NCBI GenBank assembly: GCA_019308925.1
Contig: JAFDHG010000007.1
Span: forward strand, 10,169-74,168
DNA from: Deltaproteobacteria bacterium
GTDB lineage: Bacteria; Desulfobacterota; B13-G15; RBG-16-54-18
Direction: 5' to 3'
Length of the DNA stretch: 64,000 bases
Shown here: positions 22,873 through 28,653 of the stretch, piece by piece
Layout: every line of letters starts with the position of its first letter
Numbering within the stretch: the first letter of the stretch is position 1
The notes under the pieces: model-generated
The model's database searches: none
What the model saw: only the letters and a program-made list of their open reading frames with translations
What the model was told of the DNA's origin: nothing
Program-made: the position numbers and the translations under genes

Positions 22873-22904
22873 TTGACAAATGTGGATATGCTAATTAATA
22901 TAAT
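22873..22904 (+). promoter_or_regulatory. Sigma70-like promoter of the ArsR-family gene (TTGACA-17-TAATAT/TATAAT)
   Basis: The track ORF start at 22873 is the TTG of TTGACA. The real ATG is at 22909. Confidence 0.4.
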
Positions 22905-22908
22905 TTCC

Positions 22909-23289
22909 ATGCATCAACTACAGGAGATATTCAAGGCCCTCTCCGATGAGACGAGGTTCAGGATCTTGAAGCTCCTCGGCGAAAGGGAGGTCTGTGTCTG
23001 CGAGATGATGCAAGTCCTGGAGATGCCCCAGTCCACTATCTCCCGACACATGAACATCCTCAAGCGGGCAGGACTTGTAATGGGGAGGAGAGAGGGGAAA
23101 TGGGTGCATTATAGCCTTCAGCCTGCTGCCTTTAACCCTTATGCTGGATCTGTACTCGAGCTGATAAAGGGGCTCTTGGAGGACAATGATACGGTAAGAA
23201 AAGACAAAGAAGCATTGAAAAAGGCAGTAAGGGTGTGCTCGGTTCCCCGAATTTCCTCACCGTCCCAAAACTCTTCAGGCCTTAGATAA
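22909..23289 (+). CDS. ArsR/SmtB-family metalloregulator
   Basis: HTH_20 region (DETRFRILKLL...CVCEMMQVLEMPQSTISRHMNILK) with a CVC metal-binding motif. Confidence 0.8.
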   Translation: MHQLQEIFKALSDETRFRILKLLGEREVCVCEMMQVLEMPQSTISRHMNILKRAGLVMGRREGKWVHYSLQPAAFNPYAGSVLELIKGLLEDNDTVRKDKEALKKAVRVCSVPRISSPSQNSSGLR

Positions 23290-23303
23290 GGAGGTAAGGA
23301 AAG

Positions 23304-23787
23304 ATGGGGTTTAACCATGTATTGGCCTTGCTGGTAACCGGCTTAGGCGTAGGTTTTGCCAGTGGCCTTCTGGGAATCGGCGGTTGTTTCATCATGATAC
23401 CGGTCCAGTACTGGATCTATGTATCCATGGGTGTAGAGCCGGGTACCGCCATCAAGGTGGCCTTTGGTACCAACCTCTTTGTGGTGCTGCCCACGGCAAT
23501 GAGCGGCTCCATGGGCCATCATAGAAAGGGGGCGGTGTGGTGGAAGGCGGCCTTTGTGCTGGGCATCTGCGGACTCATCGGCGCCATCATCGGCGCCACC
23601 ATACCAGCATCGGTGGTTTAATCGGTTACATTACAAACGGTTGGGGGGTGCCGGGTATCCCCTCACCCAATCCAGGACGGCCCATTTGCTTCCCGCCAAG
23701 CAACTCAAACTCATCTTCATCATCGTCATGTTCTACATGGGGCTGAAGATGATCGGGGTCTTCCAGTGGCTCCACTTGCCGATATAA
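23304..23787 (+). pseudogene. TauE/SafE (TSUP, DUF81) family transporter gene disrupted by at least one frameshift
   Basis: The N-terminal part (GxxSGLLGIGG) is in frame 0 and ends at 23621. The C-terminal part (LLPAKQLKLIFIIVMFYMGLKMI) is in another frame. A G6 run lies at 23641-23646. Confidence 0.55.
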
Positions 23788-23910: not shown

Positions 23911-24126
23911 ATGAGGGAGATATTCAAACATAACTCAGGCCGGATCTTTCTCACTATCCTGTTGCTATCAATAATAGCTATGCTCTGGGTCCCCAGGTAT
24001 TTCTTTGAGCCCCATATCTTCTTCGGCTGGTTGCCCCCACCCTTTCTCGCTGGTATTATCTTCGTCCTCGTTTGGCTCGTTGCCTATCTCATCTATTTCT
24101 TTAGATACTGGCCCTTCAGAGATTAA
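23911..24126 (+). CDS. Small two-transmembrane protein preceding the symporter (DUF4212-like, SSS-associated)
   Basis: 71 aa with two hydrophobic helices. Sits in the typical position upstream of an SSS transporter gene. Confidence 0.6.
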   Translation: MREIFKHNSGRIFLTILLLSIIAMLWVPRYFFEPHIFFGWLPPPFLAGIIFVLVWLVAYLIYFFRYWPFRD

Positions 24127-24137
24127 AAGGAGGCGCC

Positions 24138-25637
24138 ATGTCCATAGTTATCTTGGGTCTGTTCGGGATCGCGGTCCTCTGGATGGCTGTCTACGGCTAC
24201 AGGATCTCCGCCAAGACCGCGGAAGACTACATGCTGGCCGGCAGGGGGATCGGGATCATAGTGATGTTCTTCCTCACCCTCTTTGGCATATCAAGCGCCT
24301 GGACCTTCTACGGATATCCCGGATTTTTATATCGCCATGGCCCCTCCTTTGTCTACTTTGTGTGGGGGTGTGTGGTGGGGTTTGTATCGCTCTATATGTT
24401 TTTGGGGCCCAGGTTGTGGGCGGTGGCCAAGCTCAACCACTTCCTCTCCCCTGTAGAGATCCTTTCCAAAAGATATGAATCAAATACCCTGCGCTTCGTC
24501 CTGGCCCTTGTCCTGCTCGCCTCCATCATCCCCTATATCGGTCTGGAGTCCTTGGGTGTGGGATTGGGGTTTAAGGCCTTTGCAGGATTTCATCCGGCAA
24601 TAGGGATCATCTATACGACAATCCTCTTGATCTTCATCATCCTCTTGGGGGGGATGAGGATGACCGCCTGGACCAATATCCTTCTCGGCATCATCTATAC
24701 TACTACCTTTTTGGGTTCCCTCTTATGGATAATACATATAGTTTTCCCCCACGGCCTTCCTCAAGCCGTCCAGATCCTCGCCGCCAAGGGGCCAAAACTC
24801 CTCTACGCCCCAGGACCAAAGGTGGTGGGTGAACCCCTCTTTACCCATCCGGTTATCGTGGGCGTATTCATCACTGGATTTATGGCCTTTTCCTGGCCCC
24901 ATATCGTAATGGGAGCCTTAACCGTGAGGGACAAGTCCATTTTTAAATGGCTTCCCCTATTGGGTATAGCGGCTGGAGGGATAGGCTTTTACACCATCCC
25001 CTTCCTTTGGGGTTCTCTCGTGGCCCCTGCCATAAGCCACATGGATGGGACCCTGGTCCCTGTGGCTAGTGGCAAGGCGGCGGACAATATTGTTCAGGTG
25101 ATCATCACCAAATATCTCCCCGGCTGGTTCTCAGCCTTTGCCCTCATGGGGGTCGTCGCTGCTGCCCTCTCTACCGCCGCTATACAGCTAATGACATCGG
25201 CTATCCTGGTCTCCAGGGATCTGATCCACGGATTCTTTAAGCCCGATGCCACTGATAAACAACTCATCACCTGGACAAAGTTCGCGGTCATAGGTCTGAT
25301 CATCTTATCCTTGGGGATAGCCGTCTGGAACCCCATGGCCCTGGCCCTCTATCTCACGCACGTGGCCGTGCCCGGGTTTGCCCAGTGGGCACCGTGCCTT
25401 GCGGGTGGGATCCTCTGGAAAAGGGGTACAAAACAGGGGGCTATCGCAGGGGTCCTTGCAGGAACGGCCCTTTTGATTGTAGGGTTTATCTGCCATTTCA
25501 CGGATGCCATAATCCTCTCCTTTATTATCAACACCCTCATCTACATAGTAGTCAGCCTCTTGACCCCTAAACCCTCGGACCAAGTCGAGAGGATATTCTT
25601 CGATGAGGTGGAGGAATTCTTAAAGGAAAAGGCCTGA
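24138..25637 (+). CDS. Sodium:solute symporter family transporter
   Basis: 499 aa with about 13 transmembrane segments and an SSF-type N-terminal region (EDYMLAGRGIG). Confidence 0.85.
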   Translation: MSIVILGLFGIAVLWMAVYGYRISAKTAEDYMLAGRGIGIIVMFFLTLFGISSAWTFYGYPGFLYRHGPSFVYFVWGCVVGFVSLYMFLGPRLWAVAKLNHFLSPVEILSKRYESNTLRFVLALVLLASIIPYIGLESLGVGLGFKAFAGFHPAIGIIYTTILLIFIILLGGMRMTAWTNILLGIIYTTTFLGSLLWIIHIVFPHGLPQAVQILAAKGPKLLYAPGPKVVGEPLFTHPVIVGVFITGFMAFSWPHIVMGALTVRDKSIFKWLPLLGIAAGGIGFYTIPFLWGSLVAPAISHMDGTLVPVASGKAADNIVQVIITKYLPGWFSAFALMGVVAAALSTAAIQLMTSAILVSRDLIHGFFKPDATDKQLITWTKFAVIGLIILSLGIAVWNPMALALYLTHVAVPGFAQWAPCLAGGILWKRGTKQGAIAGVLAGTALLIVGFICHFTDAIILSFIINTLIYIVVSLLTPKPSDQVERIFFDEVEEFLKEKA

Positions 25638-27031
25638 TGGAATGGAGGCTGATCAATAATAGCGAGGGAGAGGTAGCAGACCTGCTGGCCCTGCCAGCGG
25701 CCGTGGCTGAGGCCAGAATAGCGGGGCGCTATATCCTCACCTCAAAACCCATACCGGAGACGATAATCATTCAACGGGTTAAGAAAAAAGGAATTTTAGC
25801 TGGTGCGGAGGTGGTGGTAGACAGGGAGGAAGCAGAAAGCGAGGAAATAGAGATCGCCGTGCAGCCCAGAGGAGGGCGTGGGGGTATGCGCCCGGCAGAG
25901 ACGATCTCTCTTCAGGAGCTGATGCTTAAGGCAAAGGACAAGTTCACCCCAGTGGATAACCCACCTGATGAGACCGCAGCCCTCATCTATACCTCTGGCA
26001 CTACGGGAAATCCCAAGGGGGTAATGCTCACCCACGGCAACTTCCTGGCCGAGTGCGAGGCGACCTCAGAGATCATAACCACCACTGAGGGGGATAGATT
26101 CGCCACCTTGGTCCCCTTTTTCCATATCTATGGTCTGGCCATAGGTCTGGTGGTCTCCCTCTTTCGAGGGTGCGGCTCGGTCTTATTCCCCCAATACTCC
26201 CCACGCCAGTTCCTGAAGCGGATGGGTAAGGAAAAGGTCTCCATCCTCATCGCCATCCCCACTCAATACCATCACCTCTTGCTTGCCGCCAAGAAGAGGT
26301 CCTTCGCCCAGCCCTCTCTAAAATACTGCATATCTGGGGCTGCTCCCTTGCCCGTAAATGTTATCCAGGCCTTCAAGGAGGCCTTCGGGGTCGATATCAC
26401 CGAGGGGTATGGTCTTACCGAGACCACGGCCGCCGTGGCAGTAAACCCTCGGGAAAAGACAAAACCAGGATCTGTGGGTATATCAGTTAAGGGCGTGCAG
26501 ATAAAGATAGGGGATGACCAGGGGAATGCGTTGTCTCCTCACAAGGCAGGGGAGGTCCTCGTAAAGGGCAAGGTGGTGATGAATGGGTATTATAACCTCC
26601 CGGAGGAGACCCAAGAGGTCTTGAGAGATGGGTGGTTGTGCACAGGCGATATAGGATATCAAGACGAGGAGGGATACCTCTATATCACCGAGAGAAAGAA
26701 GGATATCATCATAAAAGCAGGATTCAACATCTCCCCGGCGGAGATAGAGGAGCTCTTGTGCTCCCATCCTAAGGTGAAGGAGGCAGCCGTAGTGGGCCAG
26801 AAGGAAAAGGAGGGGAGGGAGGAGGCCATAAAGGGCTTTATAGTCCCTGTTGAGGGGGAGGAGATAACCCCTGCGGAGATCATCGGATACTGCAGGATGA
26901 AACTGGCCCCCTATAAGGTGCCTGATGAGATAGAGTTTACGGAAGGCCTGCCTAAGAGTGCCACCGGCAAGGTAGTGAGAAGGGAGCTGCGGCAGGGATA
27001 TAAAGACATGAGGGTCATAGAGAGGGGATGA
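25637..27031 (+). CDS. AMP-dependent synthetase/ligase (acyl-CoA ligase) lacking the canonical first ~100 residues
   Basis: Motifs YTSGTTGNPKG, TEGYGLTET, GDIGYQDEEGYLYITER and PKSATGKVVRREL are present. TSGTTG sits at residue 119 instead of about 160-190. Confidence 0.8.
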   Translation: MEWRLINNSEGEVADLLALPAAVAEARIAGRYILTSKPIPETIIIQRVKKKGILAGAEVVVDREEAESEEIEIAVQPRGGRGGMRPAETISLQELMLKAKDKFTPVDNPPDETAALIYTSGTTGNPKGVMLTHGNFLAECEATSEIITTTEGDRFATLVPFFHIYGLAIGLVVSLFRGCGSVLFPQYSPRQFLKRMGKEKVSILIAIPTQYHHLLLAAKKRSFAQPSLKYCISGAAPLPVNVIQAFKEAFGVDITEGYGLTETTAAVAVNPREKTKPGSVGISVKGVQIKIGDDQGNALSPHKAGEVLVKGKVVMNGYYNLPEETQEVLRDGWLCTGDIGYQDEEGYLYITERKKDIIIKAGFNISPAEIEELLCSHPKVKEAAVVGQKEKEGREEAIKGFIVPVEGEEITPAEIIGYCRMKLAPYKVPDEIEFTEGLPKSATGKVVRRELRQGYKDMRVIERG

Positions 27032-27915
27032 ATTTAGGAAGACTTCTAGAGGAAAGGGCCAAGGAGTATCCCAAAAAGGCCGCCCTCCTCTATGAGGGAA
27101 AGGCCATAAGCTTTGAGGAGCTCAACAAGAACGTAAATCGGCTTGCAAATGGCCTGAAGGGTCTCGGTATAGAGGGAGGGGACAGGGTGGCCCTCATGCT
27201 CCCCAATACACCGGAGTTTGTCTATTCTTTCTTTGCATGCCAGAAGCTGGGCGCAATAGCGGTCCCCTTTAATACAATGCACAAAGGTGGTGAGATACTT
27301 TACATTCTTAAAGATTGCGCGGCCAAGGCTATCATCACCCTTAACAGCGCAGTCCCCCTTATCAATGAGATCCGACCAGAACTTCCCCATTTGCAATACA
27401 TCATCACTACCGGGGAGCGCAACCTGACCTTTGCCGATCCTGAATCCACGCTCTTCCTCCAGGGGGTGTTATCCAAGGGTATCTTCAAGGACCTAGATGA
27501 TGCCTATAGGAAGATAGGGGATGCCTTAGTACAGGGGTTGTGGGAGTTGGGATTGAAAGAGATATGGTATAAGCACAGGGGAAGCCTGCGGATAGGGGGA
27601 AGGAAGCTGGCGGGTTTTTATTTCTCCGAAATCGAAGGCTTATATATCTTAAATATCATCTGTTTCCTTGCCCCTTTTGACCCCTCGGACTTCTTTTCCG
27701 TCATCTGGGTTCCACCAGAGGTAAAGGACAAGGTCTTAGAGCCCTTGACCTCGATCCAGGAGGAGTTGGGGAGGCGGCCCACCGACGAGGAATTTCGAGA
27801 GGCAATCTTGGGCGCCCTGGAGAAGGGGTTTGGAATTAAATTAAAAGAGGGTACCTTCACAAGGGATGAACGATTTGGTTACGAAAAACATAAGGCTGTG
27901 GCCAAGAAAAAATAA
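27028..27915 (+). CDS. Mosaic protein: an ANL (acyl-CoA ligase) N-terminal subdomain (~140 aa) fused to a fragment resembling the C-terminus of lipoate-protein ligase (LplA)
   Basis: The N-terminus is the typical ligase start (KKAALLYEGKAISFEELNKNVNRLANGL...GDRVALMLPNTPEF...). The C-terminus is LplA-like (RIGGRKLAG...EEFREAILGALEKGFGIKLKEGTFTRDE). Confidence 0.6.
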   Translation: MNLGRLLEERAKEYPKKAALLYEGKAISFEELNKNVNRLANGLKGLGIEGGDRVALMLPNTPEFVYSFFACQKLGAIAVPFNTMHKGGEILYILKDCAAKAIITLNSAVPLINEIRPELPHLQYIITTGERNLTFADPESTLFLQGVLSKGIFKDLDDAYRKIGDALVQGLWELGLKEIWYKHRGSLRIGGRKLAGFYFSEIEGLYILNIICFLAPFDPSDFFSVIWVPPEVKDKVLEPLTSIQEELGRRPTDEEFREAILGALEKGFGIKLKEGTFTRDERFGYEKHKAVAKKK

Positions 27916-28063: not shown

Positions 28064-28092
28064 TTGACGTGGTGCATCACTTGTGTTACACT
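28064..28092 (+). promoter_or_regulatory. Candidate promoter of the toxin-antitoxin pair (TTGACG-17-TACACT)
   Basis: It lies upstream of the GGAGG RBS and the ATG at 28121. Confidence 0.35.
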
Positions 28093-28120
28093 TAGAAAAC
28101 TACTGAAGGAGGAAAACAAT

Positions 28121-28348
28121 ATGCCTTCAAAAAATCCTCGTATCAATGTGGTACTTGACGAGCATATCTACCAAGACGTTAGATTTCTAGCTGAAAAGGA
28201 TGGCGTATCCCTATCTACAGAGGTGAGAAACCTCCTAAAAGAGGCCCTTGAGCTACAGGAAGACCTTTACCTGGCCGCTTTTGCTGAAGAAAGAGAGGAA
28301 TCATGGGATGAATCTGCGGCCCTTACACATGAAGAGGTCTGGTCTTAG
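28121..28348 (+). CDS. Type II antitoxin (ribbon-helix-helix/RelB-ParD-like), 75 aa
   Basis: Small acidic protein upstream of the RelE/ParE toxin. The start at 28121 has a GGAGG RBS. The track start at 28064 is inside the promoter. Confidence 0.7.
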   Translation: MPSKNPRINVVLDEHIYQDVRFLAEKDGVSLSTEVRNLLKEALELQEDLYLAAFAEEREESWDESAALTHEEVWS

Positions 28349-28371
28349 AGCTCTACTTCTGAAAAAAGGCG

Positions 28372-28653
28372 ATGGCTTTCAGAACTCTTTACCATCGTGA
28401 TGTTAAAAAAGTCGATCTACCAAAGATCGACAAGAAGAACAGGGCTATGATAAAAAGAGCTATTGAAGAACGCCTCGCAACTAGACCAGAGCTTTATGGT
28501 AAACCATTACGAAAAACACTTAAAGGGTACTGGAAATTGAGGGTAGGAGAATATCGAATTGTTTATAAAATATCCGCTGATGATATTCTTATTCTGGGTA
28601 TTATTAATCGAAAAGATGTTTATCAGCGAATTAAAAAGAGAACGAGCGGTTAG
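28372..28653 (+). CDS. Type II toxin of the RelE/ParE family
   Basis: 93 aa with a typical RelE/StbE pattern (...KGYWKLRVGEYRIVYKI...ILILGIINRKDVY). Confidence 0.8.
   Translation: MAFRTLYHRDVKKVDLPKIDKKNRAMIKRAIEERLATRPELYGKPLRKTLKGYWKLRVGEYRIVYKISADDILILGIINRKDVYQRIKKRTSG

Follow-up and report, generated by a model that had tools for sequence, protein, structure and literature searches.

Two coupled genes in a Deltaproteobacteria contig are predicted to encode a two-chain enzyme with reciprocally split acyl-CoA ligase and LplA-type domains

A stretch of 64,000 nucleotides (nt) from Deltaproteobacteria bacterium (GenBank assembly GCA_019308925.1, contig JAFDHG010000007.1, positions 10,169 to 74,168 of the forward strand; referred to as the window) carries two overlapping genes, g1 and g2, whose products are reciprocal hybrids of an acyl-CoA ligase of the ANL type and a domain like the catalytic domain of LplA-type lipoate-protein ligases. 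The product of g1 has the order L_N–A_C and that of g2 the order A_N–L_C, and each domain (A, ligase; L, LplA-type) is built from both chains. Judged by sequence, g1 and g2 together encode exactly one complete acyl-CoA ligase, the activity of which is predicted, and the g1 leader and g2 tail are two halves of one complete LplA-type catalytic domain; structural models suggest that complete folds of both kinds would form on pairing. The best explanation, to which a probability of about 0.8 was assigned, is an obligate two-chain enzyme with paired ligase and LplA-type domains, encoded in a cassette for acid uptake and activation. The parts of the gene pair, in window positions, are:

25637-27031, + strand: g1, open reading frame (ORF) of 464 amino acids (aa)
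25637-25903, + strand: L_N, N-terminal half of the LplA-type catalytic domain (g1 residues 1-89), ending in the Arg/Gly-rich loop PRGGRGGMRPAET
25904-27031, + strand: A_C, ANL ligase from just before the P-loop to the C-terminus (g1 residues 90-464; Pfam AMP-binding and AMP-binding_C, NCBIfam NF004837)
27020-27031, + strand: g1/g2 junction, with purine-rich GAGAGGGG (27020-27027), g2 ATG (27028-27030) and g1 TGA (27029-27031)
27028-27915, + strand: g2, ORF of 295 aa
27028-27432, + strand: A_N, N-terminal sub-domain of the ligase (g2 residues 1-135)
27433-27915, + strand: L_C, C-terminal half of the LplA-type catalytic domain (g2 residues 136-295; Pfam LplA-B_cat, conserved residues, alignment to LipB and BirA)

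The stop codon of g1 and the start codon of g2 overlap by 4 nt (ATGA), with GAGAGGGG directly 5' of the overlap. Among homologous pairs, for which start codons were assigned heuristically, the junction ranged from a 50-nt overlap up to a gap of ~165 nt, and fused genes were found in none. With stop and start codons that overlap or lie close together, the two chains would tend to be made in stoichiometric amounts and to assemble where they are translated. Promoter and terminator scans returned counts not above those of shuffled sequence. The PGAP product name for both genes is only 'AMP-binding protein'. Two proteins of a Deltaproteobacteria MAG at NCBI, P0121 and P0001, have sequences identical to the g1 and g2 products.

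A preliminary description of this DNA had proposed a ligase split over two translationally coupled genes with its C-terminal part first, and this was borne out by the ORFs, the ATGA overlap and the profile coordinates. The g1 product matched Pfam AMP-binding, PF00501, at positions 125-384/384 (E 3e-61) and AMP-binding_C, PF13193 (E 6e-20), and g2 residues 7-123 matched positions 1-123/384 of AMP-binding (E 3e-32); these matches, like those to NF004837 and LplA-B_cat given below, far exceed chance. On NCBIfam NF004837 (531 positions) g2 spanned 8-142 and g1 145-525, coordinates that are exactly complementary with none duplicated and none missing. The N-terminal ligase part is thus missing from g1, as had been noticed, and amounts to ~135 residues, not ~100. 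Scored as they stand, g1 (384 bits) and g2 (113 bits) were both under the NF004837 cut-off of 476; spliced as g2(1-135) plus g1(90-464), they matched positions 8-525/531 as a single stretch with 503.5 bits. The spliced ligase also aligned unbroken with solved ligases (8weu, residues 7-489; FadD13 3r44, residues 17-512). Its nearest ligases, at ~30% identity, were medium-/long-chain fatty-acid, aryl-acid and oxalate ligases. The ordinary N-terminal part of a ligase is absent from g1, no single family accounts for the whole of g2, and the full ANL domain set (an N-terminal domain of ~400 residues and a C-terminal domain of ~100 residues) was found in no single protein here.

The core motifs of the ligase are distributed along g1: YTSGTTGxPKG at residues 118-128 (YTSGTTGNPKG in the window copy), EGYGLTE at 256-262, TGD at 336-338, the hinge DRKKxxIxxxGxNISPxExE at 352-371 (DRKKDIIIKxGFNISPxEIE in the window copy) and PxxxxGK at 439-445 (PKSATGK) with the catalytic Lys445. 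All were at least 95% conserved over the 60 loci described below. Past the catalytic Lys, g1 residues 446-464 (26972-27028) form a conserved tail, ELRxGYxDxRLIER, which canonical ligases do not have; its D457 and R459 are conserved, and the end of g2 (RDExFGYEK) is loosely similar to it.

The preliminary description had placed ahead of the ligase part of g1 a leader of 110 aa, and had read the end of g2 as an LplA-like fragment. A non-ligase leader is present; its length is ~89 aa, with g1 residues 90-117 being ordinary ligase sequence ahead of the TSGTTG loop, and it is L_N rather than orphan sequence. The LplA likeness of the tail held (g2 residues 153-264 against Pfam LplA-B_cat, PF21948, 86-199/200, E 8e-7, 29.7 bits, cut-off 27 bits); what was called a fragment is half of a complete domain whose other half is the g1 leader. 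When the leader was spliced to the tail, the LplA-B_cat match grew from 86-199 to 46-199. The spliced leader and tail were also the query of an exhaustive HMMER search through 1.84 billion representative proteins, in which intact relatives of similar length aligned without a break over the splice: P0251 (query residues 12-248 on protein residues 15-252, 35% identity, E 3.9e-22), P0256 (2-246 on 4-247) and P0272 (3-237 on 4-233). Because of these alignments across the splice, together with the complementary profile coordinates, the leader was assigned as L_N. The intact relatives are bona fide LplA-B_cat proteins (up to 187 bits) and extend into a C-terminal domain, which g2 does not have; P0251 and P0260 gave an additional weak match to the LplA C-terminal accessory domain. 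Two further intact relatives, P0284 (573 aa) and P0293 (517 aa), are fused to a DUF116 domain. A word-indexed search with the spliced L sequence returned g2-type proteins only and no intact relatives. Matches of the leader to phosphoglycerate dehydrogenase (E 0.08-0.5) were judged to be due to chance.

The break in the LplA-type domain falls in the RRxxGGG loop, at which the chain passes into the ligase: the split family reads 'QPRGGRGGMRPAET' and, across the splice, 'ADPEST', where P0251 has 'RRLGVGGG-TIYSS' and E. coli LplA 'RRSSGGGAVFHD'. An hhalign alignment with E. coli LipB ran across the splice and placed the PRGGRGG loop on LipB RGG and g2 Lys193 on the Lys of GEKK; the hhalign matches to single E. 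coli BirA, LplA and LipB sequences were weak. Structure alignments of the LplA-type domain covered 222 residues of BH3822 (2p5i), 211 of E. coli LplA (4tvw) and 190/210 of LipB (2qht), with the LplB-dependent LplA of Thermoplasma acidophilum (2ars) as the best structural match. The tail has only 160 residues, and therefore at least 55 aligned residues in these structural matches come from the leader. In the models, the paired halves supply a complete catalytic fold of the LplA/LipB/LipM type (~200-245 residues).

Part of the LplA active site is retained. Lys193, in GGRKLAG (nt 27604-27606), was invariant in a 14-sequence alignment and at least 95% conserved over 60 loci. It aligned with the second Lys of LipB GEKK and with BirA RKLAG, in a column that is invariant across the intact relatives and E. 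coli LplA; the GEKK Lys is the catalytic Lys135 of LipB, equivalent to Lys133 of LplA. Further L_C motifs are WYKHRGS, PPEVKDKxxEPxTS and RDExFGYEK, and ~28 tail positions besides Lys193 and the Arg/Gly loop were at least 95% conserved across phyla. The loop itself reads PR-x-GR-x-G in the split family, with R78 and G80 at least 95% conserved and R81 invariant in 14-sequence alignments, and HD is absent. At the position aligned to the Cys of LipB 'vPCG', the catalytic Cys that forms the acyl-thioester intermediate, the split family has the Pro of 'VPPE' (alignments to 2qhs, 1w66 and 2qht). No Cys is universally conserved: C212 is the only frequent one, and L, T, G or I stands in its place in several Spirochaetota and other members. 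No match to the LplB accessory domain (PF10437) was found in g1, in g2 or among the cassette neighbours examined, and g2 stops right after the catalytic domain. That accessory domain is needed for the synthesis of lipoyl-AMP (PMC7253636, PMC10332631). Because the LplB module is missing and Pro occupies the LipB Cys position, the LplA-type domain is not expected to be a self-sufficient lipoate ligase.

To describe the distribution of the arrangement, ~95 loci were annotated with four segment hidden Markov models; both genes were complete in 60. With clustering at 90% identity, at least 130 protein clusters have the g2 architecture, at identities to g2 as low as 46%; at least 120 clusters are of the g1 type, and nearly all of the best 120 g1 matches were 455-495 aa long with the leader present. 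The same arrangement sought in relatives was thus present, in the same order, in ~60 complete loci: leader–ligase_C and then ligase_N–tail, on one strand, in every locus with enough sequence. A fused, unsplit or reordered version was found in none of the ~95 loci, nor among the 1.84 billion representatives. Hosts include Syntrophobacterales, Desulfobacteraceae and other Thermodesulfobacteriota, Chitinivibrionales (Fibrobacterota), a Planctomycetes-labelled metagenome-assembled genome (MAG) and Spirochaetota such as Alkalispirochaeta americana and Salinispira; one copy lies on a Syntrophobacterales chromosome of 2.07 Mb (CP070774.1). Across the 60 pairs, pairwise identity averaged 54.5% for the leader, 54.5% and 55% for the g1 ligase segments, 63% for the g2 ligase segment and 50% for the tail, and divergence of g1 and g2 was closely correlated (r = 0.955). 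Two of the ~95 loci were frameshifted (L110 inside g1; L133 in g2, between the ligase part and the tail), which sequencing errors or rare decay would explain.

Several loci departed from this layout. In L115 (128-2710) part of a g1 homologue is duplicated internally, so that a single open frame reads leader–ligase(1-333)–leader(41-90)–ligase(1-378); this may be genuine or may come from misassembly. An ORF on L161 (335-1375), a metagenome contig of 1.4 kb, has a sulfatase-like N-terminal part followed by the final ~88 residues of a g2-type tail, and is probably a chimeric assembly. A long open frame 5' of g1 in L145 and L157 was considered as a symporter fusion and rejected; on inspection of L145 it was an open alternative frame in GC-rich DNA. 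Some g2 homologues (P0048, P0071, P0074, P0100 and L002:6001-6957) are longer at the C-terminus than the window copy by a basic, amphipathic stretch of 20-30 residues (e.g., KRPASTRKSIFTKIKESLSGKK), possibly a helix that binds the membrane and keeps the enzyme close to the symporter.

Two genes directly upstream complete a four-gene cassette:

23911-24126, + strand: small membrane protein, 71 aa, two hydrophobic segments (ORF; first gene of the conserved cassette)
24138-25637, + strand: sodium:solute symporter (SSS) of 499 aa (Pfam SSF, PF00474, 86.6 bits against a cut-off of 22.8, full profile 1-406/406)

The symporter stop codon overlaps the g1 start codon by 1 nt (TGATG). The symporter was always directly 5' of g1, and so was the small membrane protein gene ahead of it wherever enough upstream sequence was examined, which made the likeness to acid-uptake loci seen in the preliminary description a reasonable one. 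Matches of the symporter to NCBIfam PutP, the VC_2705 family, PanF, MctP and ActP were weak and far below the cut-offs, giving no equivalog-level assignment. Homologues of the small protein (71-77 aa) lay 5' of the symporter in L001, L002, L003 and other loci; their alignment showed invariant M1, E3, H7, G10, G39, W40, W55, Y59, W67, P68 and R70, within the motifs MRExxxHxxGRIFL, GW and WLVAYLIYFFxYWPYR. No Pfam or NCBIfam family was matched by the small protein, which is neither DUF485 nor DUF4212. The cassette occurs in Spirochaetota, Fibrobacterota and Syntrophobacterales, and because the genes outside it differ it was regarded as a self-contained module. No lipoyl-domain acceptor gene was conserved next to it in the surroundings of L001-L003.

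Outside the cassette, the region 22873-23787 starts with a gene for an ArsR-type regulator (22873-23289). The TauE/SafE-like ORF after it is only 105 aa long and covers profile positions 1-83/237; its frame seems to go on in ORFs 23537-23746 and 23554-23787, and it is probably a frameshifted or pseudogenised sulfite-exporter gene. An RHH_5 ribbon-helix-helix antitoxin and ParE/RelE-type toxin pair (28064-28653) lies directly downstream of g2.

In the proposed enzyme, the g1 and g2 products would form an obligate 1:1 complex, with coupled translation helping the nascent chains to meet. The LplA-type domain would sit at a surface loop of the ligase between core motifs a2 and a3, and the chain links (A_N to L_C, L_N to A_C) would be crossed relative to those of an ordinary nested domain. 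The cassette would most likely import a carboxylic acid, which the ligase would activate to acyl-adenylate and acyl-CoA. In the weakest step of the explanation, the LplA-type domain would bind a ligand or serve as a second catalytic module, making use of the acyl group activated by the ligase. A more specific relay, in which the ANL module adenylates the imported acid (e.g., octanoate, lipoate or a related medium-chain acid) in place of LplB and the LplA-type module transfers the acyl group to a protein lysine or other nucleophile, was considered improbable. In mammals, the enzyme that activates lipoate is reportedly a medium-chain acyl-CoA synthetase (Fujiwara et al. 2001).

Several points weigh against the two-chain explanation. 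It is drawn from sequence and models. The chain assembly was taken from AlphaFold models made with a covalent link between the chains and with unpaired alignment rows; in the first of these the C-terminal domain of the ligase was poor, with residues 424-462 below a predicted local distance difference test (pLDDT) score of 50. (With the C-terminus free, this domain was well predicted.) By single sequence or profile, the leader gave nothing meaningful against Pfam and solved structures, and no LplA/LipB structure was matched by sequence alone. The spliced leader and tail profile gave weak LipB/LplA matches among PDB sequences, located in the tail (E 0.26-1.6). After the GGG loop the LplA-type domain is without HD, and its HHGT-type motif is replaced, losses given which it may be catalytically dead. 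That the symporter and the ligase share a substrate is an assumption from gene order.

The rival that survives best is a plain acyl-CoA synthetase in which the LplA-type domain is an inert scaffold, serving as a clamp for the ligase pieces, in regulation or in symporter docking; we rate it as possible but less likely than not. The missing LplB module, the residues lost after the GGG loop, the replaced HHGT-type motif and the Pro in place of the LipB Cys all suit such a role, as does the lack of a conserved lipoyl-domain acceptor gene beside the cassette, and the amphipathic extension of some g2 homologues could bind the membrane. The conservation of Lys193, of the Arg/Gly loop and of the ~28 other tail positions, however, is seemingly beyond what a clamp would need, and the inserts of known interrupted adenylation domains are catalytic (PMC11355689).

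A programmed frameshift at ATGA would instead yield a single chain of 759 aa, L_N–A_C–A_N–L_C. The 4-nt overlap in the window would allow it and the covalently joined model folds with confidence, but the variable junction geometry shares no common slippery context, no fused protein occurred among the 1.84 billion representatives, and the ligase C-terminal domain was strained or poor when joined and well predicted with a free C-terminus; this reading is very unlikely. Less probable again is that g1 and g2 are pseudogenes, decaying remnants of rearranged ligase and lipoate-ligase genes. Each ORF alone is under every curated family cut-off and carries only the generic PGAP name, as a remnant might, yet the layout recurs in ~60 complete loci and hundreds of protein clusters of several phyla with intact frames at 45-88% identity, the segments are equally conserved, the catalytic motifs are kept, g1 and g2 diverge in step and frameshifts are rare. 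Of the two options left by the preliminary description, a split, permuted enzyme that still works or a pair of decaying fragments, the conservation evidence thus favours the first, with function predicted from sequence, and excludes the second. An assembly or chimera artefact, which the MAG origin of the contig and the chimeric look of L161 might suggest and which had been raised earlier, is negligible, given the identical architecture in independent assemblies from many samples and several phyla (including CP070774.1 and Alkalispirochaeta americana) and the in-frame, conserved junctions.

As to origin, the crossed connectivity of the two-chain enzyme is what would be expected if a ligase gene and an LplA-like gene had exchanged parts reciprocally, and equally if a nested-domain ancestor had undergone duplication and complementary losses. 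The tandem duplication with terminal deletions suggested earlier fits the order of the ligase parts and leaves the two LplA halves unexplained. Among intact L relatives, the nearest found are proteins of 365-369 aa that make up a clade of their own. In Sulfolobus sp. A20 (CP017006.1, L168:4158-8647) a 369-aa intact LplA-like gene lies between two full-length acyl-CoA ligase genes, 170 nt downstream of one of them, in a β-oxidation cluster (PMC5127849), which suggests that this clade is linked to fatty-acid activation in Sulfolobales. The neighbourhood is a lead only: that the ancestor had a ligase gene directly ahead of an LplA-like gene could not be confirmed, the A20 ligase being only 26% identical to the split ligase and no ligase gene lying beside two other intact relatives.

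Both component folds are textbook families; the crossed wiring is not, and neither domain is possible without the partner chain. For protein evolution, the pair would be a natural and widely conserved case of genes that exchanged or interleaved parts and are predicted to have stayed functional, and it offers a test bed for co-translational assembly via translational coupling. For annotation, it shows that two sub-threshold 'partial' matches can sum to two complete domains. For enzymology, it couples two unrelated classes of acyl-adenylate enzymes (ANL and LplA/BirA) beside a transporter, and this hints that anaerobic sediment bacteria and spirochaetes have a new chemistry for uptake and activation or for protein acylation. 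The relay, if true, would be a previously unknown route of transport-coupled protein acylation or lipoate salvage through a criss-cross two-chain enzyme.

Among open-access papers and preprints, no published account of a reciprocal split was found for ANL enzymes or lipoate ligases, an absence that is no proof. The closest likeness in gene content is to loci of the E. coli acs–yjcH–actP type, which combine an SSS carboxylate symporter, a small membrane protein and an AMP-forming acyl-CoA synthetase. The cassette shares with them the SSS symporter, the small two-segment membrane protein and the ANL ligase, and uptake-activation coupling is suggested for both. It differs in that the symporter/ActP match is weak (36 bits against a cut-off of 750), the small protein belongs to neither of the DUF families named above, and the ligase, split and bearing the L domain, is not an acetyl-CoA synthetase.

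The nearest domain arrangement is that of interrupted adenylation domains of nonribosomal peptide synthetases (NRPS), where in TioN and MarQ a catalytic methyltransferase is inserted between motifs a2-a3, a permissive insertion site (PMC11355689). The a2-a3 interval is common to both systems. The interrupted domains are single chains with a contiguous insert (A_N–M–A_C), a methyltransferase and an NRPS host, whereas here there are two chains with crossed links, an LplA-type fold and an acyl-CoA-ligase-like host in a transport cassette.

Gene fission and permutation are tolerated in the lipoate-ligase family, as in bipartite LplA–LplB and circularly permuted Lpl(BA) (PMC10332631), and the L domain here is without a fused accessory domain, like LplA of Thermoplasma acidophilum. 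In LplA–LplB and Lpl(BA), however, the split lies between the catalytic and accessory domains, whereas here the break is inside the catalytic domain, no LplB is present, the partner sequences are ligase halves and several LplA active-site residues are lost. LIPT1, a 'half ligase' with the LplA fold, cannot adenylate and passes on lipoate from lipoyl-AMP made beforehand; amidotransfer is now regarded as its physiological role (PMC7253636). It is a separate, intact protein that needs acyl-adenylate from elsewhere, and any acyl transfer by the L domain is hypothetical.

Some phenylacetate-CoA ligases are without the first ANL sub-domain, a 'domain atrophy' for which dimerisation compensates (PMC4432964). 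In these enzymes the N-terminal sub-domain, which corresponds roughly to the ligase part encoded by g2, proves to be a separable structural unit of the ANL fold; there it was lost, and here it is kept on a second polypeptide. In none of the systems compared are two domains reciprocally split over two polypeptides, as they are in g1 and g2.

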